From a virus, in the IMG/VR virus record IMGVR_UViG_3300047554_000329, positions 1 to 64,000 of that record: DNA of 64,000 nt, one strand, 5' to 3'. Positions 4,478-61,034 of the stretch are shown in pieces. Position numbers and translations under genes: made by a program. The notes under the pieces were generated by a model. It had not been told where the DNA came from. It saw only the letters and a program-made list of their open reading frames with translations, and searched no databases. The first letter of the stretch is position 1; each line of letters opens with the position of its first letter.

Positions 4478-4506
4478 TGAGCAGTTTGAAATCATACTCA
4501 GGATTT
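4478..4506 (-). ncRNA. H-type pseudoknot copy 1
   Basis: AAAUC-C-UGAGUA-U-GAUUU-CAAAC-UGCUCA. Confidence 0.7.
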
Positions 4507-4511
4507 ATGGA

Positions 4512-5531
4512 CTAAGCCATTACAACCTGCTGGACAATCTTCATCAAGCGGTTTTTCTCTGCGTTGATTACAGGGTCAAAGCCAGAAGCACTTGCGTAGA
4601 TGTTTTCGTTGTCGCCACCACGAGCAGAGCGATACCAGTCTAGGCGTTCCGTCAATGCGTTGTAAGCACCCCAAGCAGTTCCGCTAATGGTGTCGTTGAA
4701 CTGACCACGATAGATTGACTGAAGCAGGTCTACCTTGCTGTCGTGCTTCTTGAATGAACCCTTAGCGTCACGCTCAGGAGCAGGGTAGGCAAGGTTGATG
4801 ATTTCTAGGAACTGGTTGTCAGTAACAGTCTTCTCAATCATCTCGTTAGCCATTTTGCTAAACTCGTCAATGTAAGCGTTAGCCAAGCCCAATGCTTCAC
4901 GAGCAACAGCAATCTTGCCTTCTGCGGTAGAAGTGTGACGGATTTTGAATGACTGCTTGCTAGCGTTCTTGCCCTTGAATGACGAGAGAGCAAGGTTTAG
5001 AGTGTTAGCACACACTACACGAACAGGGGTAATGGAAGCCTGAATAGCAATGCTTCCGTCGTGGCTAGTGTTGATTAGCAGGTAGTTGTCAATCTTGTCA
5101 GCAATACCCTTTGGGTCAAGAGTGATTGAGTTTTGAAGAGCGATAGAGCCAAATACCTGACGACCACCCTTGATTGAACCTGCGGTTTCCCAACGACCAC
5201 CGCCGTCTAGTAGGTTGTCACCAAACGAGAATAGGTCTTCGTTCTGGAGTGGAACATAGCGTTCACCAACAACACCAAGAATGTCGTTCTGGTCTTTGTT
5301 GAATGGGTTAGTGCGAGTAACGAAAGAGTAAGACTTGTCGCTAGCAAAACCTGCTGGGACTTCTACATCTTCAAGACGGACATTCCAGTTGTCTAGGTGA
5401 GCCAACTCTAGCATTTGCTGGGTGTTTACTTCTTCTTCGAATACAGTTCCTAGATTGTGCCACGCTGGTTGGCGTAGGCTAGCGAAGGTTGCTTCGCCTG
5501 TTGCTTCGTTGATTTCTAGTTCGTGAGCCAT
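4512..5531 (-). CDS. DUF932 / TIGR03299-type phage-plasmid protein
   Basis: AWHNLG, YVPLQN, WETAGSIKGGRQVF, LLINTSHDGS, TPVRVVCANTL, IRHT, GTAWGAYNALTE motifs. Confidence 0.88.
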   Translation of the reverse strand: MAHELEINEATGEATFASLRQPAWHNLGTVFEEEVNTQQMLELAHLDNWNVRLEDVEVPAGFASDKSYSFVTRTNPFNKDQNDILGVVGERYVPLQNEDLFSFGDNLLDGGGRWETAGSIKGGRQVFGSIALQNSITLDPKGIADKIDNYLLINTSHDGSIAIQASITPVRVVCANTLNLALSSFKGKNASKQSFKIRHTSTAEGKIAVAREALGLANAYIDEFSKMANEMIEKTVTDNQFLEIINLAYPAPERDAKGSFKKHDSKVDLLQSIYRGQFNDTISGTAWGAYNALTERLDWYRSARGGDNENIYASASGFDPVINAEKNRLMKIVQQVVMA

Positions 5532-5678
5532 AAGGCTTCCTTTCATTAGTGGTGGATTGTTGATAGTTCTATTATACAGACACCCACCGACATTGTAAAT
5601 AGTTTAGGGAAATATTTCGGGGAATCGTAACATTAACGTAATAAAGCTTAGTAGGAATGGAGCCCGACCCCCAAAGGG

Positions 5679-5706
5679 GACCAGTTTTACGTCATGGTCA
5701 GGACGT
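5679..5706 (-). ncRNA. H-type pseudoknot copy 2
   Basis: ACGUC-CU-GACCA-U-GACGU-AAAAC-UGGUC. Confidence 0.7.
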
Positions 5707-5716
5707 TCATAGCCCC

Positions 5717-6190
5717 CTATGAAATCACAGTGTAGTTGGAAATGTCAAAGTCACACTCTAGCACTTCGCTGTCGCTGTCGTAGGTGTCGAAGCGAACAAC
5801 ATCACAGTAGGCGTTGTCTGCTACTTCGTCAGGGTCTTTGTCGAATGGGACTTCAAACTCAACAGTAGAAACAATGTCATACTGAATGGTTACACGCTTG
5901 GTTAGCATTACATTGTCAAAGATGTCTGCAATCTTCTGAGCGTTCTCAATGGTGATGTCTTCATCAGAAATCATTTCCTTGAGTAGGTCAGTAAGAGCGT
6001 ATTCTGCCTTGCGATACTTGTCACGAGCGTTGGTTAGTTGAGTGTTGATAAAGTTGTTCTCGTTTTTGTTAGCATCTCGTTCAGCGGAAACGATAGACAA
6101 GTCATTCTCTAACTTACTAATCTTCTCGTTGAGTGCTTGTAGAACAGGGTGAGTGCTAGGGACAAATGTTCCTATGTTGATTTCTTCCAT
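5717..6190 (-). CDS. Hypothetical coiled-coil protein
   Basis: ORF track; start at MEEINIG downstream of the promoter at about 6219. Confidence 0.75.
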   Translation of the reverse strand: MEEINIGTFVPSTHPVLQALNEKISKLENDLSIVSAERDANKNENNFINTQLTNARDKYRKAEYALTDLLKEMISDEDITIENAQKIADIFDNVMLTKRVTIQYDIVSTVEFEVPFDKDPDEVADNAYCDVVRFDTYDSDSEVLECDFDISNYTVIS

Positions 6191-6241
6191 TGGGGCTTCT
6201 TTCTCTTGGTGTGGTTCTATTATAGCGTTAGGGTCAGACAT

Positions 6242-6442
6242 TTATCTGTCTTCCCATTCGGTTAGGTCTTCGTTGTTTAGGACAGCGTGAACAAAGTCAA
6301 ACTTGGCTCCGTCGTTTAGGTTGTCTAGTAGTTCCCATTGGTCTTCGTCTAGAGCGTCTACATCAAACATTAGAACCTGACTAACTCCGTAAGAACCATC
6401 AGTTTCAATCCACGCTCCGTAGCGTGATACATATTCTGCCAT
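6242..6442 (-). CDS. Small acidic hypothetical protein
   Basis: ORF track, GGAAAGG RBS, own promoter. Confidence 0.75.
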   Translation of the reverse strand: MAEYVSRYGAWIETDGSYGVSQVLMFDVDALDEDQWELLDNLNDGAKFDFVHAVLNNEDLTEWEDR

Positions 6443-6637
6443 TTCTTTCCTTTCCTTGTTACTACTATTATAAATAGAACCACGGACATTTATTTGGGGG
6501 AACTTAATGTAGTATCGTAAATGAAATAGCTATGGATAGCCCGACCCCAGGTAGCAAAAATCCCCCTGCTATTTACTAACAAGGGGATTGCTCTGGTAGC
6601 CATATAAGTTTCACTCTGCCACACCAGCCCAGAGTTA

Positions 6638-6667
6638 GAGCCTTTTAGACACTTGCTCAGGTGTTTA
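6638..6667 (-). ncRNA. H-type pseudoknot copy 3
   Basis: ACAC-CU-GAGC-AA-GUGU-CUAAAAG-GCUC. Confidence 0.6.
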
Positions 6668-6683
6668 GGCGTAAGCCTATGGA

Positions 6684-7121
6684 CTAGATTAGGTCTAGAA
6701 CGCTGTTGTAAGTGCTTGCGTTCACAGACTCTTGGTCAGTCAGTTTGAGTAGTTTGAGGGTCTTCTCCAACTGCTCTTTGTGCTGCTTTGCTTGCCAGCC
6801 ACCAACTTCTTGTGGTCGCTCTGGCTTGTCGCCTACCTTAGCAAGCAGACCCCTGCCAAGAACAACCTGAACTGTGTTGCGGTAGTCACTCGTCACAGAA
6901 AGGTTGTCGCTCTCAAACTTGAACTCATCATAAGCAACAAACTTGTTAGCGTTCTTGCCAATCAACTCAGCGACAGCCTTGCCATAAGCCTTGATGTCTT
7001 TGTTGAAGGTAGCGAGTAGACTAGGGTAGTCTTTCTCTGCCTTAGCGATTTCTGCCAACTTGTTCTCAATCATTTCGATAACTGTTGAAGTTGGGATTTT
7101 TACTGATACGGCTCTTGCCAT
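6684..7121 (-). CDS. Hypothetical protein
   Basis: ORF track; start MARAVSVK after AGGAG. Confidence 0.8.
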   Translation of the reverse strand: MARAVSVKIPTSTVIEMIENKLAEIAKAEKDYPSLLATFNKDIKAYGKAVAELIGKNANKFVAYDEFKFESDNLSVTSDYRNTVQVVLGRGLLAKVGDKPERPQEVGGWQAKQHKEQLEKTLKLLKLTDQESVNASTYNSVLDLI

Positions 7122-7187
7122 TTTATTTCTCCTTGTTTGGGGTTGTAACTTTATTATAGTGGGGACTACGGACATTTATTTGTGTGG

Positions 7188-7214
7188 TGGGCAGTTTATA
7201 GTGATACCCAGCAC
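7188..7214 (-). ncRNA. H-type pseudoknot copy 4
   Basis: GUG-C-UGGGUA-U-CAC-UAUAAAC-UGCCCA. Confidence 0.6.
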
Positions 7215-7220
7215 ATTTGG

Positions 7221-7373
7221 TTACTTGATAGTAGACCAGCGAGGCTGACCTGCTACATCAAGACGAACTCGGAACGAGCCGTTCTTGTTAGCCACAACTT
7301 CCTGAACAATGCCAGAAACGCCTGACTTCTGAGTGGTGAACTGTGAGCCAACAGTAGGGATAGTGATTGCCAT
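7221..7373 (-). CDS. 50-aa SH3/KOW-like beta protein
   Basis: MAITIPTVGSQFTTQKSGVSGIVQEVVANKNGSFRVRLDVAGQPRWSTIK*; promoter with TTGATA -35; below ORF cutoff. Confidence 0.7.
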   Translation of the reverse strand: MAITIPTVGSQFTTQKSGVSGIVQEVVANKNGSFRVRLDVAGQPRWSTIK

Positions 7374-8128
7374 TTTTGCTTCTTTCATTAGTTATTTGAT
7401 ACCAACAGGTTTGTTGATACCTCTATTATAGCAAGGGGGTCAGACATTTATCAACTCTACTTGTAATAGAATGTAACATCTTTAGTTTTTATTGGGGAGT
7501 GAGTTTTGTCTCTCCCTTGCTACAGTTCTATTATACGGATACCCACGGACATTTATTTTGGGAAATGGGGGATTTTTATCTTAATCGTAAAAAGTTTTTT
7601 GGTTCAGCTGCCCGACCCTTTCGGGTAGCCTATGAGGAATACAAAAAGTTCTTAGCAACTAGCCAAGTGCGATACATAACTTCATCGTCTTTACCAGAGA
7701 TGTCCCACTCCAATAGTCTGCCTATCAGGTGTGAGTTGCGGTCTTCCAAGTCTGCTAAGACTAAGGCGTATGCCTGTTCTAGTTCTTCGTTCATTAGTAT
7801 CCTGCTCTCTCTAGCATTGATAGTAGTTGGTCTACTTGCTCTGGGGTTAGTTCTTCGATTGCCTGTTCGTTGATTACATTCTCAAACATTTCTCTCCCTA
7901 CATAAACTCAAATGGGTCTCGGTCTTGAAAGATTTCTTCCCAATCTTCCAAAGAGTATTCTTCTGGGTTAGCAAAATAGTCTGCTAATGCTTCACGGATT
8001 TCTTGTGCTTGTTCATCGTTCATAACTTTATTATACATTGGGGGTCAGACATTTATTTCGGGAGGTTTTTAATAGTCTACGTAAAGGAGCTTTGCCTTGC
8101 CTGGATGCCCGACCCCTTTCGGGGTAGG

Positions 8129-8605
8129 CTAATCTTCCTCGTGGTCAAAATATTTGTTTGAGCATTCTACACACATACCAAGTTCTTCTTGGTGAACAAT
8201 AGCCACAACTGGCTCTCCACACTTTTCACAAGGCTTGTAGTGGCTAAAGTGAAATAGCCCTGTTCCTGTTGGTTCATCGTGGCTCCAGCGTCTAGCGGTA
8301 AGGATGTTGTTCTCAAGATACCACTCAATACGGAAGTCACCATTCAAGGCTAATGCTCCGTGTAGTTTATCCATAGTTGTCCATTTGAAGCCTGCCTTAC
8401 GCTGCCAGCCCATTCCTGAGCCGTCAATAAGGATGTGGTCGTTGTCGTCAATGTTGTTGTCTTTCTGCCATTGACCTAGAACATAGAATACAACCTCTTT
8501 CTGCCATTCGTAGCAGTCAAGACATTCTTCGCTAGGTGTTCCGTCTTCATTCTCGCATAGGCAGTCAGTAGTAACTTCAGCGATTAGTTTTTGTGCAGTA
8601 GTCAT
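8129..8605 (-). CDS. Hypothetical protein with two Cys clusters and SHDEPTG motif
   Basis: ORF track; start MTTAQKL after GAAAGAGG. Confidence 0.75.
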   Translation of the reverse strand: MTTAQKLIAEVTTDCLCENEDGTPSEECLDCYEWQKEVVFYVLGQWQKDNNIDDNDHILIDGSGMGWQRKAGFKWTTMDKLHGALALNGDFRIEWYLENNILTARRWSHDEPTGTGLFHFSHYKPCEKCGEPVVAIVHQEELGMCVECSNKYFDHEED

Positions 8606-8779
8606 TGTCCTCTTTCTTGTTGCTTTTAGTTTATCAGTAGCCACAGACATTTTAGTCTAGGTAAGTTTCAAACGAATACAGGTCTTCATCGTGCATTTGG
8701 CAGTAAGCGAAGTAACCTTTAGATACCGCTTCGAAACTAACAACAGACTGGCATCGGTTGCATCGGTAGTATTTAGCCA

Positions 8780-8950
8780 TTAGTAACTCTCCTTGATAGC
8801 CTTTAGTTTGTTTGCTTGACGGCTACCCTTGCGGTTTTCAGGGGTAACGATGTTGTGTTTAGTTAGTAGCATAGACTCAAACAAGACCTTAGCGTGAGCC
8901 TTGCGAGTTGCTTCGTTTAGTTTGCCTAGTGGCTTCGTTCTTTTCTTCAT
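8780..8950 (-). CDS. Small basic protein, probably leaderless
   Basis: ATG 6 nt after TATAAT. Confidence 0.65.
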   Translation of the reverse strand: MKKRTKPLGKLNEATRKAHAKVLFESMLLTKHNIVTPENRKGSRQANKLKAIKESY

Positions 8951-9051
8951 AGTCTTATTATACATCTAGGTTCAGACATTTATTTTGGGAGATTTTTAAT
9001 GTGTAACGTAAAGGGGTTTGGGCTGAGGAGCCCGACCCCTGGGGGTAGCGA

Positions 9052-9573
9052 TTACTCGCCACTCCCTCTCACTACAATCCAGATTAGGGCTTGCATTGCT
9101 CTAGGGGTCATGCCGTGTTTGGTAGCCACAGCGGTTACAGCGTCTGCCATTTCCTTATACTGAGACTGAGTAGGTGTCTTTTTCTCAATGCCCAATGCTC
9201 GCAACATCCAAACATCAATCACGACTGCGTTCTCGTTACCAGCAATAGCCTTAGCAAAGTTGTTAGTCTTTAGACCTTTGAGAGCGTCGAATCCTAGTGT
9301 TAGGGCTTTTTCTGCCATACGGATGTTGTTACCCAACACTCCCTTTAGTTCGTGACCAAGTGAAAACTTCACTGCATTACTAACATTACGAGACCAACGC
9401 TCACGAGGGCTAAAAGCAGATACAACAGTTGCTCCAATCTCAAGGGTAGTGTTTAGGTTAGTTGCTACTTCACGAGCAACGGTCTCAGCGTCTAGATACC
9501 ACTTAGTGGCTTGCTCAACCTGACCAAAGGTTGCTTTCTTAGCGATGTTTGAGTAAATGTCAATGTAGTTCAT
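9052..9573 (-). CDS. Conserved phage protein, possibly DNA-glycosylase (HhH)-like fold
   Basis: WY...SAFSPRERWSRNV...GLKTNNF...VVIDVWMLR...MQALIW pattern; start MNYIDIY after GAAAGG. Confidence 0.6.
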   Translation of the reverse strand: MNYIDIYSNIAKKATFGQVEQATKWYLDAETVAREVATNLNTTLEIGATVVSAFSPRERWSRNVSNAVKFSLGHELKGVLGNNIRMAEKALTLGFDALKGLKTNNFAKAIAGNENAVVIDVWMLRALGIEKKTPTQSQYKEMADAVTAVATKHGMTPRAMQALIWIVVRGSGE

Positions 9574-9801
9574 TGGATTCCTTTCGTTGATAAGATTAGT
9601 ATACATTGGGGGTGGGACATTTATTATCGTAACGTAAAAGAGCTTTTCCCAGGCTGCCCGACCCCCAGCACACCCTAGAAGGGTGGCTGAAGTTCCTCGT
9701 TCTCTCTCCAAAGTTTAGTAACTAGCCTAACAAGGATGATGTTCACTGCCGTAAGAAAAACCACGCCAGCAAGACAAACCCAAATAAGAAAACTAAGCCA
9801 T

Positions 9802-9981
9802 TCATTCATCTCTGCCTCCCCAGCAAGCGTCTACAAACTTTTCGGTAATAAAGCGTTCGTTGTCCTCACGAAACATCTGAGCAAAATCTTCAACCAAGTT
9901 GTCGAAAGTTGTTGCCTCAAAATAGTCAAGGTAGGAGTTTAGGATTGCTGCGGTAGACACATAGTCTTTGCGTGTCATCAT
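9802..9981 (-). CDS. Small conserved phage protein (MTRKDY...DNERF...F..AC)
   Basis: ORF track, trimmed start. Confidence 0.7.
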   Translation of the reverse strand: MMTRKDYVSTAAILNSYLDYFEATTFDNLVEDFAQMFREDNERFITEKFVDACWGGRDE

Positions 9982-10495
9982 TAGTTTTGCTCTCTTTCTG
10001 ATACTTCGATTAGTTTTAGTCTGTCTTTGTCTGATAGCATAGCCCAAGCATAGCCAAAAGCATAAGCGTAGGCTTCCGAGTTGCTAAAGCCTCTGGTGGT
10101 CATTATGTTTTTGATTACTTCGCTGGTTCTGAAGATTAGTTTTTCTTCCATTAGTTTTACCTTTCGTTGTGATTACAGTTTACCAAGACCCACAGACATT
10201 TATTCTGTAGGCTCTTGCCACTCAACGCCATTTACCCAAAAGCGAGCAATACGACCTTTGTAGTATTGGTCTGATAGGTATGGCGTTTGGTCTACATCTA
10301 GAGGACCTTCAATCTCAAAGGTAACTCCATTGTCCATTTCGATTACATAGATGTTCATTGTGTCTCGCATAGTCTTCCTTTCGTGTAGTTACATTTTAGC
10401 AGTAGCCTCAGACATTTATTCTGGGGAAAAATCTGGGACATTTTTAATGGGCTACGTAAACGAGCTTGCGAGGTCGCCCGACCGCCCTGGCTGCC

Positions 10496-10657
10496 TCAGT
10501 CGAAGCAGTTGGGAGCGTCTAGGAACTCGGCATAAGCCTCTTGCAAGGCTTGCTGGCGTTCAGCCCTGTCTTGGGCTGCCAACTCCTCTGGGGAGTATTC
10601 CTCCTCCTCAAAGAAGTAGTCCTCCGAGATGTCGCCCCAGCCGTAGTCGTCTTCCAT
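10496..10657 (-). CDS. Very acidic 53-aa protein
   Basis: MEDDYGWGDISEDYFFEEEEY...; GAAAGG RBS, own promoter. Confidence 0.7.
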   Translation of the reverse strand: MEDDYGWGDISEDYFFEEEEYSPEELAAQDRAERQQALQEAYAEFLDAPNCFD

Positions 10658-10918
10658 AAGTTTTCCTTTCGTTGATAATGCAAGTGTAACAAGACCCACA
10701 GACATTTTGGGGAAAAATCTTAAATCTATTTAATAACGTTTTGGTAACGATGGGGGTCGGGCTCGCAGCTGCTAGGCAGGGCGAACGCAGAGGTTACAGA
10801 CAAACATACTCTTGGCAACTAGCCTAACGAGGTAGGCATCAGCAGGGCGATTGCACAACTCGCAGAGGTGTTGCTTACGCTCTTCGGCGGTTAGTTTGAT
10901 GGCTGGCATAGGGTCTCC

Positions 10919-11164
10919 TTAGTTAGCGTGTGGGTAGTTTGGTGATAGGTCAAGGGTGTTGTAGGTTGCTTCATTCTTGTTCAGCAGGGTCAGGCGATAG
11001 ACGATGCCAGAGTCAGAGAAACGGCGAGCAACCTCAAAGTGTTCACACAAGCCAAAGTTTTTGATGTTCTTGCCGTCTGCGTAGGCTTGGGCAAAGGTGG
11101 GGTAGGTCTGGATGCTCTGGCTCACAAAGAGCAGGTTTGGGCTAAGGGTCAAGGGGAACTCCAA
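10919..11164 (-). CDS. Hypothetical protein
   Basis: ORF track, promoter at about 11184. Confidence 0.55.
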   Translation of the reverse strand: MEFPLTLSPNLLFVSQSIQTYPTFAQAYADGKNIKNFGLCEHFEVARRFSDSGIVYRLTLLNKNEATYNTLDLSPNYPHAN

Positions 11165-11288
11165 TCAATCAACTTACGAAGTAAGTCTAACAGCCACCTC
11201 AGACATTTATTATTATTTTGGGAAACATTTCGGGACATTTTTAATGCGTTACGTAAACCGTTATCATTTCGTTATGAAGCCCGACCCC

Positions 11289-11318
11289 TGTGGATAACTT
11301 TCGCTACCCTGTGGATAA
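11289..11318 (-). promoter_or_regulatory. Two perfect DnaA boxes 21 bp apart
   Basis: TGTGGATAA at 11289 and 11310, directly after GCCCGACCC. Confidence 0.8.
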
Positions 11319-11827: not shown

Positions 11828-11945
11828 TTATTCCTTCTTTCTATCTACCTATAAGGTATCACGAACCACGGACATTTATTATTGTTTTGATAGGCTTTTA
11901 GCCCTATTGTTACGCATTGTTACCAAAATGTTACCAAACTTGGGG

Positions 11946-13265: not shown

Positions 13266-14122
13266 AGCCCGACCCACGCTGTCGGGCGTGTCGCCCTGGT
13301 AGCCCTATGGGATTAGACCTGCTGCCCATAGCAATAGGCTAACACTGCCTAGCACTAGCACACTGGCGAGGGTAACCATTATGACAATGGTCAAGTCATC
13401 TACTAGGTTACGCATTAGTTACACCATAGGCAGTTGATGTCGTCACAAGGGTTTTCTTCTGAGTAGTCTTCGTTTTCGTTCATTTGGTTTCTCCTTCTTG
13501 ATTACAGTTTACTTGATAGGTCAGACATTTATCGGTTGCGAACAAGGTCACGAACCTTGTCGATAAACCAACCTAGGGCTGGAGCGATAAGCACAAAGCC
13601 TAAGCCTAGGGCTACTACTGTTAGGATTGCTGTTACTACTGACATTTTCTTTTCCTTTGCTTCCTTGTAGTTACAGTCTATACCACTGGGCAGACATTTT
13701 GGGGGATTTTAACGTATATCTTATGTAACAATTTGGTAACGAAGCCCGACCCCAAAATCCTGGATTTGTCAAGTCCAAGCTTGGGCGTGTCGCAGGGTAT
13801 CTAGTGAGTGTCTAGCCAGTGCATTACAAAAGCAACAGCACCAACACCTAGAGCAGTCACGCCTAAGATTATCCAGACAAATAGTTGAAACATTTCCCAG
13901 TTCATTAGTTACCTACCTTTTCGTTGATACGGATAGCAGAACCTGCCTTGATTACGCCTACTAGAGCAGTAGCCTTCTTCATTGCTTGCTCACCATAGTA
14001 AGCAGACACTACTACCTTGAACGCTTCACCGTTCATTAGGTAACCGCCTACTTGCCATTCAGTCATTCTGTTCATTAGTTTACCTTTCTTGTTGTTATTA
14101 GTTTAGCAGATACCACAGACAT

Positions 14123-16014: not shown

Positions 16015-16034
16015 GGTTGTGATATAATATATTT

Positions 16035-49715: not shown

Positions 49716-49716
49716 A

Positions 49717-54111: not shown

Positions 54112-54689
54112 TGCCAAGACTAACTAGTTCAATTGACGGTGGAAGCAGCTTTCCATCTAGTCAGCCAATAACATCCAAAATATCAGCAATTCCAGATTTG
54201 CCAGAGTCAGCATCTTCTGCACTGTATTTTATTAGAACAAGCGAACAGGCTAGAGCTATAAAGTCTGCCCCACCAATTCAAGATTTGACTACCGACACAA
54301 CAATTTTAGACACAAGCAGGGCACAGTTTAACAGAGAGTTTGAATACTTTAATGCCAAAGCCTTGTCAACAATTCTTAGAAATGATATGGTAAATGGTCA
54401 AACAATTAAGTATAATCCCATCACTAACATATCTGACATAAGCCAAAGGTACAATCCAAACAATCTTATTAGTCTTCAGTCAACCCTGCAGTCATATTTT
54501 GACGCATTTGAGTTAAACCTGGATAAATATATTCCAGTGGCTGCAGAGCCAACAGAAGAGTATACTGCAACTGAGACAAGTGCAGAATATGAGATTGAAG
54601 TTTCTTTTGCTGACATATCTGGAACAGAAAGGGTAGAAGTAGAATTCTTAGTCATGGACACGGCTTTTAATGATACAATATATACATAA
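54111..54689 (+). CDS. Tail-associated hypothetical protein
   Basis: ORF track, coupled. Confidence 0.65.
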   Translation: MPRLTSSIDGGSSFPSSQPITSKISAIPDLPESASSALYFIRTSEQARAIKSAPPIQDLTTDTTILDTSRAQFNREFEYFNAKALSTILRNDMVNGQTIKYNPITNISDISQRYNPNNLISLQSTLQSYFDAFELNLDKYIPVAAEPTEEYTATETSAEYEIEVSFADISGTERVEVEFLVMDTAFNDTIYT

Positions 54690-55864
54690 TGATTACTGAT
54701 ACTGGAAAATCCATTTTAACAAAATATATGCTTGGGCAGACCACAAGCTATGCGTCATACATTGCCCTAGGCTGTGGTGCAAAGCCAATATCTAGCACCT
54801 ATAACTGGACAACAGATTCAAGCGGATACAAAGCAGCATTTAAGGCAAAAACCGAAATGGACTTTGAGATGCTAAGAGTTCCAATTATTTCTCGTGGCTA
54901 TGCAGACGGTCAGCTAGTTTTGACAGCAGAGCTTCCAACAACTGAAAGGTATGAGATTTCCGAAATTGGTCTTTATCCAGCAGTTCAGAATCCATCTGCT
55001 GGTATAGCAGACAGTAGAAATCTATTCACATTTTCGACTACAGAAAAGTGGTATTCACAAGAAGGAACGGCATCTCCACAGGTAGAGCTTACAACAGTCT
55101 CCTCAGCACTTGACGAAGAGTCAGTTGATAACTCAATTAATTTTACTGATGGTGTCTTTACAGAGTCTTCGGCAGCCTTTAGAGCAAGTGCAACGAATGT
55201 TCTTTTTTCAAACACTGAAAGAATTGGTAGGTATGAACTGCCAAGATTCTTTGACAGTTCAATTTTTGTTCTTGGTAATGGGGTTGCTATGGCAAGCACA
55301 GTTGACACAGATGCAGAAGTTTTAGCTTATAGCGTTCAGGCTACTGACAACTTCATTACACTAGAAAACACTCAAGCTGACCTAACCAGAAACTCACCAG
55401 CAGATAAGATTAAGGTTGCTTTATCGCTGGTAAATAAAGATGGTGCAGGAACAACAAATCATCCAGACAGAGTAAATGTGATTGTTGACTTTATAGCCTC
55501 TAATAATGGCTCTTACGCACGATTTGGTAAGACAGAAGATGTGAGCGGATACTCTTCTTCAAATAGATACGTTGTGCTATCACAAACATTGGGAGAAATG
55601 ACAATTACAAATTCTGGCTCTGGCTTTAAATGGAGAAACGTAAATACTATAAAAGTTTATGTATCTGTTTTTGACGGAGGCTCACTATCTACAAACCACT
55701 ATGTTTCTTTGGATGCTATTAGAATGGAAAATGTTTCGTCCCCAAATCCCCTATATGGTCTTACAGGATATACTGTTATTGAAAATACATCTTCTCAAAC
55801 ATTTGTAAAAGAAAACAACACACAGGCACTTGTTGAGTTTAGGTTCTCAATGGATGTGGTCTAA
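54689..55864 (+). CDS. Tail/baseplate structural protein
   Basis: MITDTGK, YIALGCG, ISEIGLY motifs. Confidence 0.65.
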   Translation: MITDTGKSILTKYMLGQTTSYASYIALGCGAKPISSTYNWTTDSSGYKAAFKAKTEMDFEMLRVPIISRGYADGQLVLTAELPTTERYEISEIGLYPAVQNPSAGIADSRNLFTFSTTEKWYSQEGTASPQVELTTVSSALDEESVDNSINFTDGVFTESSAAFRASATNVLFSNTERIGRYELPRFFDSSIFVLGNGVAMASTVDTDAEVLAYSVQATDNFITLENTQADLTRNSPADKIKVALSLVNKDGAGTTNHPDRVNVIVDFIASNNGSYARFGKTEDVSGYSSSNRYVVLSQTLGEMTITNSGSGFKWRNVNTIKVYVSVFDGGSLSTNHYVSLDAIRMENVSSPNPLYGLTGYTVIENTSSQTFVKENNTQALVEFRFSMDVV

Positions 55865-56391
55865 TGGTAGACGCATTTCAAAACAACATTAAAAAGATTA
55901 GGATTAAGCCAGAAAGCTTGCCACCAATCATTGTAACTACTGATGGAACGACTCTTGGTCAATACTATTTTAGATACAGGATTGTTTCAGAAGATGGGAC
56001 TAGAAAGTCTGCATATTCGCCAGTACAGGCGGTAAATGCAAGAGACTTCTCTTCAGTAACTGTAAATCTAAACACGGTATCTGACGGAACAAAGTTTATT
56101 TTATCCTGGACAATCCCAGACGTATATATGACACAATACGACATTTATGTTGCATGGTCTTCTAACTCTGGCTCTACCTATACCTCATATTCATATATTG
56201 GCAGGTCAACAGGAAACAGCTTTGTTATTGATATTCCAGCAATATATCAGTCAGAGCTTGGAACAAAGATGGCAAAATTTATAATTCAGTTGCCAACAAG
56301 TCCACAGGTGCTAAACACAAAAGCAGAAATCTATGAGTCTTCTGTAGGAGTTTCTACACAAATAACCCCAGTAGACGGTGGAACCGTCTAG
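55864..56391 (+). CDS. Fn3-like virion protein
   Basis: YYFRYRIVSEDG.RKSAYSP; ends VDGGTV like the collagen fibre. Confidence 0.55.
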   Translation: MVDAFQNNIKKIRIKPESLPPIIVTTDGTTLGQYYFRYRIVSEDGTRKSAYSPVQAVNARDFSSVTVNLNTVSDGTKFILSWTIPDVYMTQYDIYVAWSSNSGSTYTSYSYIGRSTGNSFVIDIPAIYQSELGTKMAKFIIQLPTSPQVLNTKAEIYESSVGVSTQITPVDGGTV

Positions 56392-56410
56392 CTTATGCTA
56401 TAATAAAGAC

Positions 56411-56830
56411 ATGACAATTATTCCAGGACAGCCAATTGACTTGGCAACAATCACGCAAGCTATTAATGACCTTAACGACTTAACAGCAGTTGTAAAGACA
56501 TCAACCAGTAACTCTATTTATATTGGTCAGGATGCTGTGTCTGTTCAAAACTCTACATCAAAAATGTCAATGGAGGCAGCCTACGTCAACCTTGACAAAA
56601 CAGAAACAAAAGCAGACAGTGTTCCATTTAGACATACCTTTAAGACCAATTTTACAAAGCCACCAGTAGTCACAGCAACTCTATTTGAAAAATCTTCATC
56701 AGCAGTTGTTCAGAATCACTCAGTGGTCATTACCAATATTACAACTCAGGAAATTATTGGTTATGTAAAGTTTGAGGCAAGCGGAAAATTTAATTCATCA
56801 ATTAATCTTATTGCCATCGGATACGTATAA
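56411..56830 (+). CDS. Virion protein with H-lectin/gp53-like C-terminus
   Basis: FTKPPVVTAT...INLIAIG; ATG 6 nt after TGCTATAAT. Confidence 0.6.
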   Translation: MTIIPGQPIDLATITQAINDLNDLTAVVKTSTSNSIYIGQDAVSVQNSTSKMSMEAAYVNLDKTETKADSVPFRHTFKTNFTKPPVVTATLFEKSSSAVVQNHSVVITNITTQEIIGYVKFEASGKFNSSINLIAIGYV

Positions 56831-56832
56831 CA

Positions 56833-57360
56833 ATGAGCATGGATAGAGAAGCATATAACAGTGCTCCTGTAATCCCAGGCAGCAAAAAGGTTTGGTTTCT
56901 AAATGGAGACCTAGTAAGAATACATCACTTAAATCGTTCCAACGGAATTATGTCAGTTTATAATATAAACAAAGATAGACTTGAGAGTTGCCTAGTTACT
57001 GACTTTAAGCGTAATCGCAAGAAAGCATATACTGTTGGAGAGACAGCAACTTTAGTAAATCGTCACAAAAAGTATTTACCTAATCTTATGAAACGTGGGA
57101 TTATTCCACATCCAACAGGCGGTCAAAAAGGTGGGGCAACTGGATGGCAGGTCAGAAGCTATTACTCTGAGTTGCAGGTTCACGAAATTCGTGATATACT
57201 AGCCACCTACCACATTGGACAGCCACGCAAAGATAAGCTGATTACCAATGATATAACTCCTACTAAACAGGAGTTGACAAGGCGTATGGGTGATGGTATA
57301 CTTACTTATACAAGGACCGAAGACGGTCGCTTCATTCCTGTTTGGAACGAAGAAATTTAA
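56833..57360 (+). CDS. DNA-binding protein with MerR-like HTH
   Basis: YTVGETATLVNRHKKYL...RGIIPHP...RSYYSE. Confidence 0.65.
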   Translation: MSMDREAYNSAPVIPGSKKVWFLNGDLVRIHHLNRSNGIMSVYNINKDRLESCLVTDFKRNRKKAYTVGETATLVNRHKKYLPNLMKRGIIPHPTGGQKGGATGWQVRSYYSELQVHEIRDILATYHIGQPRKDKLITNDITPTKQELTRRMGDGILTYTRTEDGRFIPVWNEEI

Positions 57361-57377
57361 CGAGAGAGCAGTAGGGT

Positions 57378-57587
57378 ATGAACAACGAAGAAACTAAGGT
57401 AACAGTAGGTCTAGGCTATACGCTTAACCTAGGCAACTTTCAGTCGCTACGCATTGACATTAGCGTAACCGACAACAAGCGTGAGGGTGAAAACACCAAT
57501 GACGCATTTGAGCGTGTCTACGGATTTGTAGAGAAGAAGCTCACAGAAAAGGTAGCAGAAGCACAGTCAGAGACTGACGGTAAATAA
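57378..57587 (+). CDS. Small conserved phage protein
   Basis: TLNLGNFQSLRID; TTGACA...TATACT promoter at 57274-57302. Confidence 0.7.
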   Translation: MNNEETKVTVGLGYTLNLGNFQSLRIDISVTDNKREGENTNDAFERVYGFVEKKLTEKVAEAQSETDGK

Positions 57588-57895
57588 TGGCTGAACGCAA
57601 AGACCGAATGGCTTTGCTTTCTCGTTACGCAAAGCTTCACACTAAACACTATGAAGAACGAGTAACACTCAACCTTAACGTTGAGCAGTGGGCTGCAGAC
57701 GCTCTGATTGAATCCTATGGTTTACCAGAATGCTATGACCTATTAGAGTATTACTTTTCAGTTAGCCAGACTCCAACTTGGAAATACTTTGCTAACTATG
57801 CAGACAAAATTATAGATGCTAGAGAGCAGCTACAGCAAGACATTAAAGAAAGAGCAGAACGTAGGGCGAAAGCCAAGGAGTGGTTAAATGACTAA
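57587..57895 (+). CDS. Hypothetical protein, possible helicase loader
   Basis: Coupled directly upstream of helicase. Confidence 0.6.
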   Translation: MAERKDRMALLSRYAKLHTKHYEERVTLNLNVEQWAADALIESYGLPECYDLLEYYFSVSQTPTWKYFANYADKIIDAREQLQQDIKERAERRAKAKEWLND

Positions 57896-59108
57896 TACAG
57901 AATCAAAGCTAATTTCAGCGGTACTACAGGATAAGCAGGTTCACGTACTGCTACAAGCAAACGTAGAGAACATTCTTAGAACTCATACTGATATCTGGAC
58001 ATTTGTTCGTAACTATTCTGAGGCAAATGGCACTGTGCCACCAACCTCATTGGTTGTAGAGAAGTTCCGTGACTTTATTCCTGTAGAGGGTGTTGGGGCT
58101 ACCAAGTATCACTTAGAAGAACTACAGGCAGAGTTTTTGAATGACAGCCTTAAAGATGTTCTACGCTCAACTGCTGCAGAGGTTCAGGCTGGGCAGGGAA
58201 CTAAGGCACTAGAAGACCTTATTCAAAAGACCTCAGAGCTAAAGAAGAACACAGCAGTTATTCGTGACATTGATGCAACAGACCTTGACTCAGCAGTAAT
58301 CTACTTTGAAAACCTAGCAAAGCAACAGGCACTAGGTGCTATTGGTATTAAGACTGGCTTGGCTGGTTTTGACAACTATCTACCTGCTGGTATTACTCCA
58401 GGTCAGCTAGGCGTATTCCTAGCCTATCCTGGTATTGGTAAGTCATGGATGGCTCTATACTTTGCTGTACAAGCATGGAAGCAAGGCAAGTCACCACTAA
58501 TCATCTCTCTAGAAATGTCGGAGACAGAAGTCCGTAACCGTGTATTTACAATCATGGGTGAGGGTTTGTGGTCACACAGAAAGATGTCCAATGGTCAGGT
58601 AGAGATTGAAGACCTAAAGCGTTGGCACAAGAAGGAACTTGCTGGCAAGCCAGAGTTCCACATCATCTCTAATGATTCTGGTGGTGAAGTTACTCCATCA
58701 GTTATCCGTGGTAAGATTGACCAGTACAAGCCAGACCTAGTTATTGTGGACTACCTACAGCTTATGTCGCCTAACCAAAAGTCGGATAACGAAACGGTAC
58801 GCATGAAGAACCTGTCTCGTGAACTAAAGCTTATGGCTATTAGCGAAGAGATGCCTATCATTGCTATCTCTTCTGCAACACCTGACGACGTTAACAAGCT
58901 TGATACTGTTCCTACACTTGGACAGACTGCTTGGTCACGTCAGATTGCATACGACGCTGACTGGGTGCTTGCTCTAGGTCGTGCTACCAACTCTGATGTC
59001 ATTGAGTGTGTGTTCCGTAAGAACCGTAATGGTTTTATGGGTGAGTTTATTGTCCAGGCTGACTTTGATAAAGGCTACTACCGATACAAGGACTTTGAAG
59101 AAAACTAG
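57888..59108 (+). CDS. dnaB: Replicative DNA helicase, DnaB family
   Basis: AYPGIGKS Walker A, SLEM, VDYLQLM, KNRNG. Confidence 0.93.
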   Translation: MTNTESKLISAVLQDKQVHVLLQANVENILRTHTDIWTFVRNYSEANGTVPPTSLVVEKFRDFIPVEGVGATKYHLEELQAEFLNDSLKDVLRSTAAEVQAGQGTKALEDLIQKTSELKKNTAVIRDIDATDLDSAVIYFENLAKQQALGAIGIKTGLAGFDNYLPAGITPGQLGVFLAYPGIGKSWMALYFAVQAWKQGKSPLIISLEMSETEVRNRVFTIMGEGLWSHRKMSNGQVEIEDLKRWHKKELAGKPEFHIISNDSGGEVTPSVIRGKIDQYKPDLVIVDYLQLMSPNQKSDNETVRMKNLSRELKLMAISEEMPIIAISSATPDDVNKLDTVPTLGQTAWSRQIAYDADWVLALGRATNSDVIECVFRKNRNGFMGEFIVQADFDKGYYRYKDFEEN

Positions 59109-59120
59109 TTATAATGGAGT

Positions 59121-59462
59121 ATGGTCAACTTACACCATAAGCCAATTAAACACTTTTTCTTGGATGGTCAAATCCACGATGAAGCAGCTATCGGTAGACT
59201 TAAAACTGAATACATCAGACTAGTCACCGCAGAAATGCGTCTATCTGGATATGTGCCAAGGCTTGACATTGACCCAGATTTTACGATAGAATTTAATAGC
59301 AAAACAGAATATTTTACATTTCAATTATCAATGTACGGAACATATGTAGGAAGAAGAAAGAGCGAATGGATTACAGGAATAGACGGAACAGTAGCGTATA
59401 CACGCCAGAACAAATCAAACGAGTCCTTGCAGGGTCAGGAATCAACGTCGAATCAGAAGTAG
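59121..59462 (+). CDS. Hypothetical protein
   Basis: ATG 5 nt after TATAAT. Confidence 0.65.
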   Translation: MVNLHHKPIKHFFLDGQIHDEAAIGRLKTEYIRLVTAEMRLSGYVPRLDIDPDFTIEFNSKTEYFTFQLSMYGTYVGRRKSEWITGIDGTVAYTRQNKSNESLQGQESTSNQK

Positions 59463-60307
59463 ATTCAGACTACATTATCTTCTGCCCATTCCACAATAAC
59501 CATCGCTCACCTGCTGGAGAAATTGACAAGCGTTCTGGGTTCTTCTTTTGCTTCTCCTGTCAGCACGTTTGTGACCTAACTGCTTTTGTTATGCATACTT
59601 CTAGTCGTACCTACTTTGAGGCGGTACGCTTTATTAAATCCAAGGAAACAGAGACTGACCTTTCTTATCAAATTAATCAAGCATTGGTGGTCAAGCCAGA
59701 CTACACACCATACGATGAATTGCAGATTAAACGACTAAACCAGCAAGCTCTAGACTCTCCTAGAGCATTAAGATACTACTCTGGAAGGCTCATAAACGAG
59801 GCTTCAATCCGCAAATTCGACTTGGGGTATAGTGAGAAGCAAGACATGGTTACAATCCCTGTAGCGTCCCCTGAAGGCGTTTCAGTGGGGTTTGTGGGCA
59901 GGTCCGTAGAGGGTAAAGACTTTAAAAATACACCAGGACTGCCAAAGAGCAAAGTCCTATTTAACCTACACAGAGTAAAAGCATCTAGTAAAGTCTATGT
60001 GGTTGAATCATCATTTGATGCAATTCGACTTGACCAGTGTGGCTTTCCTGCTGTAGCAACTCTTGGAGCAAACGTATCCAAGATACAAACAGACCTACTT
60101 CAAAAGTATTTCAATGAGATATATGTCATTGCAGATAACGATGAAGCTGGCGGTAACATGAAAGACAAGCTTATTGAAAGACTTGGCAGCCGTGTTAGCG
60201 TTATCAAATTAGATAAACAATATAAGGATATTGGCGATATGTCAGATGAAGCAATCAAGAATCTTGAGGAATCATTTGACAATACTATCGCTGGTATGCT
60301 AAACTAG
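59366..60307 (+). CDS. dnaG: DNA primase (CHC2 zinc finger + TOPRIM)
   Basis: CPFH...CFSC, VVESSFDA, DNDEAG, KDIGD. Confidence 0.92.
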   Translation: MDYRNRRNSSVYTPEQIKRVLAGSGINVESEVDSDYIIFCPFHNNHRSPAGEIDKRSGFFFCFSCQHVCDLTAFVMHTSSRTYFEAVRFIKSKETETDLSYQINQALVVKPDYTPYDELQIKRLNQQALDSPRALRYYSGRLINEASIRKFDLGYSEKQDMVTIPVASPEGVSVGFVGRSVEGKDFKNTPGLPKSKVLFNLHRVKASSKVYVVESSFDAIRLDQCGFPAVATLGANVSKIQTDLLQKYFNEIYVIADNDEAGGNMKDKLIERLGSRVSVIKLDKQYKDIGDMSDEAIKNLEESFDNTIAGMLN

Positions 60308-60336
60308 TAATCCGCTAAAAACATAAGGAGAATATT

Positions 60337-61002
60337 ATGAGCGTAATTAGAGGGCTAAAAGACATCAACGCACTAGTTGACAAGCCAAAGTATGACAGCA
60401 CCGCAAACGGTGGACAGAAGATTCGCTGGGTAAAACTAGCTGATGGACAGTCTGCTAAGATTCGTTTTGTTGAAGAGCTAGACAGCGAATCAGCGAACTA
60501 TAACGAGGGTCGTGGACTTTCGGTAGTAATCGCAGAACACACCAATCCAAAGGATTACAAGCTTAAGGCAGCCTGTACCATTGACTCAGAGGGTCGTTGC
60601 TACGGTTGTGAGATGGCTCGCAAGGAGCCAAAGTCAGGTTGGCGTTCACGCCTCCGCTTCTACTGCAACGTTATCATTGACGACAGCACAGAAGCACCTT
60701 ATGTGGCTGTTTGGTCACAGGGTATCAGCAAGCAGTCAGCATTCAACACCATTCGTGAGTATGCTCTAGAGACTGGTTCTATCTCAAACCTTGAGTGGAA
60801 GATTAAGCGTAACGGTCAGGGAACTGAGACCAGCTACACCTTGCTTCCAACCAAGCCAGACTCAGAGCCATATGCCTGGGGAGAGGTTGAAGCATTTGAC
60901 CTTGAGAAGGTTGTCCGTGAGATTCCTTACGCAGAGCAGGAGAACTTCTACTTCGGCTTTGGTCAGACCGCTTCGGTAACTTCAAGCAACACCGACTGGT
61001 AA
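60337..61002 (+). CDS. Single-stranded DNA-binding protein (gp32-like)
   Basis: Zn-binding H/C residues (AAC...CYGC), KIKRNGQGTETSYTL, position in replication module. Confidence 0.75.
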   Translation: MSVIRGLKDINALVDKPKYDSTANGGQKIRWVKLADGQSAKIRFVEELDSESANYNEGRGLSVVIAEHTNPKDYKLKAACTIDSEGRCYGCEMARKEPKSGWRSRLRFYCNVIIDDSTEAPYVAVWSQGISKQSAFNTIREYALETGSISNLEWKIKRNGQGTETSYTLLPTKPDSEPYAWGEVEAFDLEKVVREIPYAEQENFYFGFGQTASVTSSNTDW

Positions 61003-61006
61003 AACA

Positions 61007-61034
61007 TAGAGCTGGGCATCTCTACAAACTGCCC
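61007..61034 (+). ncRNA. H-type pseudoknot copy 5
   Basis: UAGAG-CU-GGGCA-U-CUCUA-CAAAC-UGCCC. Confidence 0.7.

Follow-up and report, generated by a model that had tools for sequence, protein, structure and literature searches.

The five short repeats that follow stop codons in one stretch of a phage genome (IMGVR_UViG_3300047554_000329; the stretch of 64,000 nucleotides is called the window here) belong to a large, apparently uncatalogued RNA family that spans bacterial phyla. Covariation shows that the 29-nt element almost certainly folds as a compact H-type pseudoknot, a structure read from aligned sequences, and a sixth copy lies in the same genome outside the window.

Copies and fold of the element

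The copies and neighboring features are listed below. All window copies are given in a common 29-nt register; S1 and S2 are the two stems, and scores are those of our covariance model R1.

4402..4474, minus strand: tRNA-Gln (UUG), directly downstream of copy 1
4478..4506, minus strand: pseudoknot copy 1, S1 AAAUC/GAUUU, S2 UGAGUA/UGCUCA, 40.3 bits; past the TAG of the DUF932 gene and 3 nt ahead of tRNA-Gln
4512..5546, minus strand: DUF932 gene, with copy 1 at its 3' end
5664..5684, minus strand: hairpin CUGG-U-CCCC / GGGG-UCGG, which re-uses the S2' strand of copy 2
5678..5706, minus strand: pseudoknot copy 2, S1 ACGUC/GACGU, S2 GACCA/UGGUC, 35.3 bits; past the TAG of a 174-aa ORF
6556..6589, minus strand: terminator-like hairpin AAUCCCC...GGGGGAUU followed by a U-run, read by eye from the sequence
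6637..6665, minus strand: pseudoknot copy 3 (variant), S1 ACAC/GUGU, S2 GAGC/GCUC, 28.3 bits; past the TAG of the ORF ahead of it
7188..7216, minus strand: pseudoknot copy 4, S1 GUG/CAC, S2 UGGGUA/UGCCCA, 37.4 bits; past the TAA of a 55-aa ORF, with an early promoter directly 3'
60337..61002, plus strand: SSB gene (phrog_9721), with copy 5 at its 3' end
61007..61035, plus strand: pseudoknot copy 5, S1 UAGAG/CUCUA, S2 GGGCA/UGCCC, 35.5 bits; past the SSB TAA, its end 31 nt ahead of the dnaE ATG at 61067
83662-83690 of the genome, plus strand: pseudoknot copy 6, outside the window; 5 nt after a 131-aa ORF

All six copies lie on the sense strand. Run with filters off over the 64-kb window, R1 returned exactly five matches (28.3 to 40.3 bits), and the next best scored 8.8. 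Both the model and the sequence itself bear out the five sense-strand copies and the stems of the preliminary description, and its placement after stop codons holds as well; the distance, given there as 4 to 16 nt, measures 4 to 18 nt (5, 10, 18, 4, and 4 nt for copies 1 to 5, from the stop codon to column 1 of the register).

The layout of the 29 nt is fixed: S1 (5 nt), C, S2 (UGNNYA), W, S1', N-AAA-C, and S2' (UGNNNN). Within the family, S1 has 3 to 5 bp and S2, which pairs the S1 loop with the 3' tail, has 5 to 6 bp. Loop 1 is a single nucleotide, invariably C, that spans S2; the single junction base is U or A; and loop 3, which probably sits in the minor groove of S1, has 5 to 10 nt, with AAAC always kept at its end across the family model matches. 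About 11 bases of the fold are near invariant. The constant loop and AAAC linker reported before are features of the family, and copy 3 is a variant with UAAAA-GG instead of NAAAC-UG and only 4 bp in each of S1 and S2, a form that is also present in relatives. Copy 4 has merely three S1 pairs.

The arrangement is that of an H-type pseudoknot: the S2 strand lies inside the S1 loop, both helices show compensatory change, and the loops are long enough to span the grooves (at least 1 nt for loop 1 over a 6-bp S2 and at least 3 nt for loop 3 over a 5-bp S1). The single helices are weak, and the nested folding energies of the element (−4 to −11 kcal/mol, z-scores −0.6 to −1.6) are unremarkable.

The compensatory changes first seen among the five copies are supported far more strongly by hundreds of homologues. 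When IMG/VR was scanned with patterns that left S1 free, 243 of 245 distinct matches had at least three contiguous S1 pairs, and pairing was maintained through about 200 different S1 sequences; both helices were present in 113 of 123 matches from GTDB genomes. In 142 distinct sequences, 89.7% of cells were paired, compared with 30 to 38% when the partners were slid. Two-sided change occurred in these sequences at all five S1 pairs and at S2 pairs 9-27 and 10-26, which was reached in none of 500 shuffles. Compensatory change was seen at every variable S2 pair, and lower-scoring model matches added A8-U28, U11-A25, and a fully compensated UAAACA/UGUUUG. G·U pairs are frequent (pair 11-25 is G·U in 55 of the 142 sequences), and together with an orientation that always follows the genes they identify the element as an RNA feature of the sense strand.

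A control pattern that fixes only unpaired or invariant positions had 47 distinct matches in 664 kb of the phage and its relatives, with both helices paired in 34; the same pattern on reversed or shuffled sequence gave 0 to 1 paired matches, which excludes chance resemblance. At the two bases after S2', G is nearly absent (2 to 3%). A G at these positions would lengthen S2 into loop 1 and S1.

Breadth of the family and genomic context

Applied beyond the window, as the preliminary description had proposed, the covariance model found the sixth copy. In all, we gathered 409 distinct copies, which come from IMG/VR contigs, from GTDB genomes representing many phyla, and from cultured phages. Phages of Actinobacteria, Firmicutes, Cyanobacteria, and Bacteroidota carry the element, as do bacterial chromosomes. 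The cultured carriers are phages of Staphylococcus, Lactobacillus, Corynebacterium, Synechococcus, and crAss-like groups and include Corynebacterium phage phi673, Staphylococcus aureus SAP3-type phages, Lactobacillus phage phig1e, and Synechococcus phage S-EIVl. No convincing copy was found in T4, S-PM2, Syn9, P-SSM2, BillNye, 80alpha, or phi11, and a BLAST search with one 31-mer gave no match in E. coli genomes.

The Rfam comparison suggested in the preliminary description found no family for the element: Rfam 15 had no match to it, either at gathering thresholds on the window and 18 bacterial loci or at an E-value of ≤10 on 3 kb and on 56 nt, and the searches returned nothing but tRNA, a single hammerhead, and noise. 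Literature searches, run both by topic and with sequence strings, turned up no account of the element; a set of 10,006 candidate viral RNAs (PMC10690425) lay outside this comparison. We also considered two associations that were dropped. A link with diversity-generating retroelements (DGR) or TnpB omega-RNA was suggested by the taxa and a Cys-rich peptide, but the neighbors are ordinary metabolic genes. The other was the "drum" motif, considered for a supposed association with tRNAs or hammerheads. Its paper describes a terminator-flanked, protein-associated motif, and we rejected the identity.

The element keeps a sharp distance to the stop codon upstream and a broad one to the next start. 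The gap from the stop has its mode at 4 to 5 nt (107 of 307) and a floor of 4, and about one third of the copies, copy 3 of the window among them, lie more than 12 nt away. Judged by established ribosome footprints, a gap of 4 to 5 nt puts the helix at about +11 for a ribosome with the stop codon in its A site. The genes end in any of the three stop codons, mainly TAA (207/307). The upstream genes are unrelated and encode DUF932, Hsp20, ArdA, and capsid proteins, among others. In a bacterial micro-ORF family the frame enters the element in a fixed register and the stop codon lies inside the pseudoknot, so that ribosomes must unfold the element there; the peptide encoded by the micro-ORF falls into no Pfam or NCBIfam family.

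Downstream, a same-strand tRNA starts within 2 to 13 nt in 30 of 326 copies (9%), and a tRNA lies upstream in one. A type III hammerhead is found near five copies, with its cleavage site 5 to 12 nt past the pseudoknot. A convergent ORF comes next after 14% of the copies, and 37% lie 10 to 40 nt ahead of the next start codon, with an unstructured A/U-rich, G-poor stretch up to the ribosome-binding site. The 3' flank is C-rich and G-poor (as in A-CCAC at copy 4) and has no conserved CCA, with C at 48% and 37% at two positions and T at 28 to 44%. No U-tract of the kind expected of an intrinsic terminator follows the window copies, and elsewhere in the family U-tracts follow only a subset.

In relatives, the sites after SSB and after DUF932 hold the pseudoknot in some cases and a GC-rich hairpin or terminator in others, and DUF932 retains the pseudoknot while its downstream neighbor varies among relatives. 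The hairpin at 5664..5684 is possibly an alternative fold to that of copy 2; orthologues of this site keep a CCCC-UUU-GGGG hairpin in the same position. The terminator-like hairpin at 6556..6589 lies about 50 nt downstream of copy 3 and fell outside our hairpin scan because of its long loop.

A putative boundary at the cistron end

What does the element do? Its context leads us to propose, tentatively, a cistron-end boundary that protects the upstream mRNA. Each copy would be transcribed within the mRNA of its upstream gene and would then fold, as near to the stop codon as is possible without being unwound by the terminating ribosome. As a 3'-terminal cap, the pseudoknot would shield the upstream message from 3'-to-5' exonucleases. 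The end itself would arise just downstream, through RNase P cleavage at a tRNA, a hammerhead, an endonuclease, or termination. At tRNA-Gln, an RNase P cut at the tRNA 5' end would yield a DUF932 mRNA ending in copy 1 plus 3 nt. In related phages, GC-rich hairpins found at the same sites would be the structures for which the element stands in. Of the roles suggested in the preliminary description, an exonuclease roadblock on the 3' side or a processing boundary appears to fit the context best, because a tRNA or hammerhead lies directly downstream and hairpins replace the element at orthologous sites. Autoregulation in the manner of T4 gene 32 is not supported: the element is found 3' of SSB, and the genes it follows, in many unrelated phages and in bacterial chromosomes, are numerous and unrelated.

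Several points argue against a cap. The predicted stability of the element is much below that of the hairpins it replaces, and specific loop bases that stay the same across phyla point to a specific partner, or to a demanding tertiary structure, more than to a simple roadblock. The 37% of copies close to a start codon may act on the downstream cistron, and in the micro-ORF family ribosomes have to open the structure. More speculatively, the element may represent a class of cis-acting RNA that is both new and very widespread: a universal "full stop" of the message, spaced to suit the leading edge of the terminating ribosome and recognized by machinery that all bacteria share (the ribosome, RNase P, or exonucleases). 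Phages and some chromosomal micro-genes across many phyla would use it to define and protect mRNA 3' ends or to control post-termination events.

The conserved spacing could also mean that the element is directed at the ribosome itself, although we regard this as unlikely. At the mRNA entrance it would modulate termination or recycling, or block post-termination sliding and re-initiation into the next tRNA, ribozyme, or cistron. The 4-to-5-nt spacing with its floor of 4 has the geometry of recoding pseudoknots, conservation across phyla fits a universal partner such as the ribosome, and the micro-ORF frame has a fixed register relative to the fold. However, the third of the copies that are distant from the stop and the use of all three stop codons speak against it, and a slippery heptamer is absent. 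In-frame extensions beyond the stop are short (median, 13 codons; at least 60 codons in 7%), and their slight excess over the other frames arises because, with a gap of 4 or 5 nt, the UGA and UAA of the motif itself do not stand in the reading frame. With neither a slippery heptamer nor a supporting in-frame extension, we rejected a stimulator of readthrough or frameshifting.

Two further explanations are both improbable. In the first, the coaxial stack of S1 and S2 would be a mini tRNA-like substrate for RNase P or another universal RNase, splitting polycistronic phage RNA into single-gene pieces. Bacterial RNase P is reported to cleave small H-type pseudoknots with a 3' RCCA in loop 1 (PMC12710915). 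The C-rich, G-poor bases after S2' are in line with this, and the same gaps hold tRNAs, tRNA-like RNAs, or hammerheads in other phages; yet the conserved CCA is missing. RNase P usually favors U at −1, whereas loop 1 is C. Moreover, a cleavage signal 2 to 8 nt ahead of a tRNA or hammerhead would be redundant, and a cut in loop 1 would strip the upstream mRNA of its protecting structure.

In the second, the element would be an operator bound by a protein or small ligand, acting as a site where a translational repressor like T4 gp32 or RegA would control the next cistron, as an antitermination signal of the nut/put type, or as a sensor akin to a riboswitch. So many near-invariant bases in a 29-nt fold, the unstructured run to the next ribosome-binding site, and the position of λ nutR, which likewise lies directly after a stop codon, favor such a role. 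The carriers, however, share no gene family, their hosts belong to many phyla, and the chromosomal neighbors are ordinary genes. It is the distance to the upstream stop that is sharp and not that to the next start; many copies are followed by a tRNA, by a convergent gene, or by nothing at all; and copy 5 follows SSB instead of preceding it. Terminator-like hairpins occur after 4.8% of the pseudoknots compared with 6.2% of control gene ends, by which we rejected a terminator or antiterminator.

A DNA-level repeat (interleaved inverted repeats bound by a protein, or a promoter variant) or a chance resemblance is very improbable, even though CTG-N11-AAACTG also fits the early promoters of the phage: these promoters show no S2 pairing and stay under 9 bits in R1, the G·U pairs would turn into A·C mismatches on the opposite strand, the orientation is strictly that of the genes, and shuffled and reversed controls are nearly devoid of paired matches. 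The CTG-N11-AAACTG matches at 10176, 13505, and elsewhere are such early promoters (AAATGTC-N12-TAAACT) and not members of the family.

RNA motifs of about 30 nt usually escape comparative screens. This one offers several hundred independent examples, textbook pseudoknot covariation, and a nucleotide-precise relation to the stop codon. A true 3'-end cap or termination-coupled signal would be a new element in the basic grammar of bacterial and phage operons, would explain stable single-gene phage messages beside tRNAs and ribozymes, and would provide synthetic biology with a portable part of 29 nt. Carriers in cultivable systems make the function directly testable.

Comparison with known systems

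The geometry is that of the T2/T4 gene 32 mRNA pseudoknot and of the SRV-1 and MMTV frameshift pseudoknots, which share an S1 of about 5 bp, a 1-nt loop 1 across a 6-bp S2, 0 to 1 junction base, an A-rich loop 3, and a place a few nucleotides from the A-site codon. In contrast to these, our element is not upstream of ssb, has no slippery site or extended frame, is multicopy after unrelated genes, and has loop bases conserved across phyla. The gene 32 operator occurs once per genome, in the 5' leader of its SSB gene; here there are six copies, five of them after other genes.

Like the intercistronic and 3'-terminal stem-loop mRNA stabilizers (REP hairpins in malE-malF, T7 RNase III sites, and terminator hairpins), the element comes right after a stop codon, within operons or where transcripts end, and at orthologous sites it and GC-rich hairpins are interchangeable. 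It differs from stem-loop stabilizers in being a pseudoknot with conserved unpaired bases and not a long GC-rich hairpin, in its fixed spacing from the stop, in the missing U-tract of the window copies, and in a far lower predicted stability. The preQ1-I riboswitch aptamer (RF00522) is also a very small H-type pseudoknot: it has about 30 nt, its P1 has 5 bp, and its 3' tail is rich in A. Its loop sequence differs, however, a 56-nt stretch with the element had no Rfam match at an E-value of ≤10, and the element, which is not linked to queuosine genes, is found 3' of genes instead of in 5' leaders.

The tRNA-like pseudoknot of the TYMV acceptor arm and, as an RNase P substrate, a biotin-aptamer pseudoknot (PMC12710915) resemble the element in their stacked two-helix form of about 11 to 12 bp and a C-rich 3' flank, and the element occupies phage gaps that hold tRNAs elsewhere. 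Unlike tRNA-like pseudoknots, it has no conserved CCA, T-loop, or other tRNA features, and ARAGORN and the Rfam tRNA models did not match it. The exoribonuclease-resistant RNAs (xrRNAs) of flaviviruses and plant viruses are alike in the proposed role, a folded RNA that halts an exonuclease and defines an RNA end; they block 5'-to-3' Xrn1 by a ring around the 5' end and span 45 to 70 nt, whereas the element has 29 nt, lies at 3' ends, and has no Rfam match.

The space that separates a stop codon from the following gene is a niche shared with the intergenic hammerheads and tRNA "punctuation" of phage operons (Perreault et al. 2011, PMC3088659). Rfam models for self-cleaving ribozymes (hammerhead, pistol, twister, and others) found no core within the element, and hammerheads only adjoin it. 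In about 10% of cases a hammerhead or tRNA is physically adjacent, and the element then precedes the cleaving element and does not replace it.

Pseudoknot copies and their sites

The phage genome measures 92,924 bp with direct terminal repeats, and the window covers its first 64 kb. The host is probably an actinobacterium, because the DnaE encoded in the window is closest to Streptomyces phage DnaEs, at about 58% amino-acid identity. Direct reading of the sites showed that all five copies in the window share a single 29-nt register without gaps, on the same strand as the genes around them. The register runs from the 5′ strand of helix 1 (S1, 5 nt) through C, the 5′ strand of helix 2 (S2, U-G-N-N-Y-A), W, S1′ (5 nt) and N-A-A-A-C to the 3′ strand of helix 2 (S2′, U-G-N-N-N-N); base and pair numbers refer to its columns.

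Pseudoknot copies; the gap is counted from the upstream stop codon to column 1
4478-4506, minus strand: copy 1, after a DUF932 protein gene (gap 5 nt), ending 3 nt before tRNA-Gln
5678-5706, minus strand: copy 2, after a 174-aa ORF (gap 10 nt)
6637-6665, minus strand: copy 3, after an ORF of roughly 145-163 aa (gap 18 nt)
7188-7216, minus strand: copy 4, after a 55-aa ORF (gap 4 nt)
61007-61035, plus strand: copy 5, after SSB (gap 4 nt), ending 31 nt ahead of the dnaE ATG
83662-83690, outside the window: copy 6, S1 AACUC/GAGUU, 5 nt past a 131-aa ORF

The preliminary description had placed the five copies on the sense strand 4 to 16 nt after stop codons. The strand and the post-stop placement stand, but the range does not, the gaps being 5, 10, 18, 4 and 4 nt. 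Copy 1 does adjoin a tRNA, and copy 5 does lie between SSB (a phrog_9721 match, E = 1.5e-44) and dnaE, as had been noted.

The ORF ahead of copy 3 (6684-7175, minus strand) has a mechanical start at 7175 that falls within a promoter box, AAATAAATGTCC; translation more likely begins at an ATG near 7121, preceded by AAGGAGAAATAAA, which would give a protein of about 145 aa. A decamer, GGGTCGGGCT (GCCCGACCC on the plus strand), occurs on the minus strand at about 4388-4397, 5661-5670 and 6544-6553, between gene-end structures of the early region and the next promoter, and is followed by a TTACGAT box.

A conserved mRNA pseudoknot at the 3′ ends of ORFs

Pairing alone is no evidence for the element, since searching for arbitrary pairs of interleaved helices with this geometry gives about 145 matches across the genome. 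When only the unpaired and invariant positions were fixed, 664 kb of sequence from the phage and its relatives held 47 distinct matches, of which 34 were paired in both helices; the number of such paired matches fell to 0-1 when the sequence was reversed or shuffled. Two IMG/VR pattern scans that left S1 wholly free returned at least 120 loci each, and among the matches listed at least three contiguous S1 pairs were present in 243 of 245 distinct matches, with about 200 different S1 sequences. A scan of 185,579 species genomes found both helices in 113 of 123 matches, among the matches listed. Loci with SSB or DUF932 homologues contributed 34 distinct copies, and at least 409 distinct 29-mers were collected overall.

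Across 142 distinct rows, pairing holds in 89.7% of cells and drops to 30-38% with the partners slid, and none of 500 shuffles attains the observed pairing and covariation values. All five S1 pairs change on both sides, as do S2 pairs 9-27 (GC 77, AU 65) and 10-26 (GC, AU, CG), which bears out the earlier claim of an H-type pseudoknot with compensatory change in both stems. Because these rows had been selected for pairing, the fixed-position pattern and the S1-free scans are the unbiased tests. The covariance model that had been proposed as a check (R1, built from 143 diverse copies) scores the six genomic copies at 28-40 bits and everything else at 8.8 bits or less. Its lower-scoring matches add pairs A8-U28 and U11-A25, include a fully compensated UAAACA/UGUUUG stem and extend loop 3 to as much as 10 nt, always keeping the AAAC end; a Staphylococcus phage copy has an S2 of 7 bp. 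A conserved pseudoknot on mRNA, tied to the 3′ ends of ORFs, is established.

The two bases that follow S2′ are hardly ever G (2-3%). Since a G there would lengthen S2 at the expense of loop 1 and the closing pair of S1, its avoidance looks like negative design in favor of the pseudoknot. Several bases are invariant (C6, U7, G8, A12, AAAC, U24 and G25), a hint that the tertiary fold is demanding, perhaps with A-minor contacts or a C+ triple, or that the element has a specific partner of universal occurrence.

All other exact matches to CTG-N11-AAACTG belong to early promoters (AAATGTC-N12-TAAACT), which lack S2 pairing and resemble the pseudoknot by coincidence. Their form is unusual, with (A/T)AAATGTC, 12 nt and then TAAACT or TATAAT, about 25-30 nt ahead of each small early gene.

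Early promoters in the window
8627-8646, minus strand: early promoter
10176-10195, minus strand: early promoter
10392-10411, minus strand: early promoter
10682-10701, minus strand: early promoter
13505-13524, minus strand: early promoter
14099-14118, minus strand: early promoter

Gene-end placement and possible function

Among 307 copies with upstream ORFs of 40 codons or more, 107 have gaps of 4-5 nt, which form a sharp mode; gaps below 4 nt are almost absent, and a tail extends towards longer ones. A ribosome with a stop codon in its A site encloses the mRNA to about +10 and unwinds it from about +11. By these established footprints the first S1 base falls at +11 when the gap is 4 nt, and we infer that this is the nearest a helix can be to the stop without being opened. 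The upstream genes are heterogeneous (DUF932, Hsp20, DUF7249, DUF3768, ArdA, capsid proteins), for the most part without a Pfam family.

Downstream, a same-strand tRNA starts 2-13 nt after 30 of 326 copies; only one copy has a tRNA upstream. Type III hammerheads follow 5 of 409 copies, with the cleavage site 5-12 nt past S2′.

Type III hammerheads starting 0-7 nt after a pseudoknot, by collected locus
L345:3468-3530
L377
L381
L221:13774-13850
L224

A second, separate hammerhead, confirmed by Rfam, lies about 190 nt upstream in L381, making a small unit with a ribozyme on each flank. The next start codon is 10-40 nt off in 37% of copies, and a convergent ORF comes next after 14%. Terminator-like hairpins follow 4.8%, on a par with other gene ends.

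At the post-SSB site the pseudoknot is kept, with differing S1 sequences, in relatives at about 87% identity or more and in L085 (76%); more distant relatives have a GC-rich hairpin there, sometimes together with a U-run and promoter. The post-DUF932 site carries a 9-12-bp hairpin or else a pseudoknot, which occurs in four S1 versions (one of them with A8-U28) and stays with DUF932 while the downstream neighbor varies (tRNA-Gln, tRNA-Glu or no tRNA). In L093, L094 and L097, which lack the pseudoknot, a 12-bp hairpin stands in for it at about 5015-5060, past the DUF932 stop, and has the −35-like hexamer TTGACA as its loop; similar TTGACA-loop hairpins recur in relatives.

We tentatively hypothesize, at somewhat less than an even chance, that the pseudoknot marks the boundary of the upstream cistron or caps it, because cutting devices downstream, hairpin replacement and spacing converge on this reading. 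RNase P acting at the tRNA, or the hammerhead, would cut the RNA just downstream, so that the message would now end in the pseudoknot and a tail of 2-12 nt. According to the literature on PNPase and RNase R, 3′ exonucleases do not load efficiently on so short a tail. Stable hairpins stand in its place at orthologous sites, and the spacing would keep the pseudoknot folded during termination, with no naked RNA between ribosome and structure. Weak points are the modest thermodynamic stability of the helices and the invariant bases, with the tertiary fold or specific partner at which they hint.

An element acting in ribosome termination or against sliding, to which the gap mode is also relevant, seems unlikely; readthrough or frameshifting by the pseudoknot is unsupported. 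Still less probable is an RNase P-type punctuation signal, in favor of which small pseudoknots bearing 3′ RCCA serve as RNase P substrates (PMC12710915). We consider a protein or ligand operator just as doubtful. The architecture is that of a classical compact H-type pseudoknot, nearest to T2/T4 gene 32 and SRV-1/MMTV, but it does not qualify as a gene 32 operator, and the gene 32-like autoregulation once suggested for copy 5 is not supported. Searches with Rfam models placed it in neither preQ1-I nor any other Rfam 15 family, and it does not qualify as an intrinsic terminator, a recoding signal or a ribozyme. A DNA-level element is effectively excluded; an orientation strictly that of the genes, together with many G·U pairs, indicates that the element acts in RNA.

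No description of the pseudoknot was found in the searchable literature, and the 10,006 viral candidates that PMC10690425 leaves unnamed may include it. We regard it as a pseudoknot form of a known kind, the structured mRNA 3′-end element, whose distribution is unusually wide and whose ribosome-scale spacing rule is unusual.

Distribution and possible mobility

Among the matches listed, the genome-scan hosts include Saccharibacteria, Omnitrophota, Desulfobacterales, Planctomycetota, Chloroflexota, Cyanobacteria, Firmicutes, Bacteroidota, Actinobacteria and some archaeal MAGs. Cultured carriers, sought by BLAST with two 31-mers, include about 90 S. aureus siphophage records (between minor head and scaffold genes), Lactobacillus phages phig1e, KC5a and Lj771, Corynebacterium phages phi673 and phi674, Microbacterium phage Count, Nostoc, Moorella, Anoxybacillus and D6E phages, cyanophages S-H35, S-RIM4 and S-SM2, and crAss-like phages. 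No convincing copy was found in T4, S-PM2, Syn9, P-SSM2, BillNye, 80alpha or phi11.

Copies cluster within genomes, with six in this phage and 4-6 in several IMG/VR contigs. Synechococcus phage S-EIVl, a cultured polar freshwater cyanophage and possible experimental system, has seven candidate matches, three strong (31-34 bits) and four weak (17-21 bits).

KJ410740.1 25893-43014, all minus strand: up to seven S-EIVl copies, early region

One MAG contig (G005:C138:8250-11994; loci L464, L468, L471 and L473) holds seven copies within 3.7 kb, some 90-200 nt apart; they accompany repeated short ORFs (…PRHSGLS.YG.P..VLGLCPEHDVKLL…) whose reading frames continue through the pseudoknot. In a relative of 95% identity, the pseudoknot that follows SSB (L012:3671-3699) matches copy 4 at 28 of 29 positions, although copy 4 follows a 55-aa gene unrelated to the SSB of L012. 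Copies may therefore pass from site to site or undergo conversion.

A conserved chromosomal micro-ORF of about 17-25 codons (M-K/T-R-F/Y-M/I-I/V-P-R-V/T-A-H-C-x-x-G-C-(H)) enters the pseudoknot in a fixed register at its 3′ end. Its peptide matches no Pfam or NCBIfam family. It occurs at L343:1016, L344:1391, L376, L387, L394, L403 and 15 other GTDB loci, in Desulfobacterales, Planctomycetota, Omnitrophota, Aminicenantes and others. Its neighbors are ordinary (geranylgeranyl-reductase-like, peptidase C26, LPG synthase C-terminal), at times with an Rrf2 regulator downstream.
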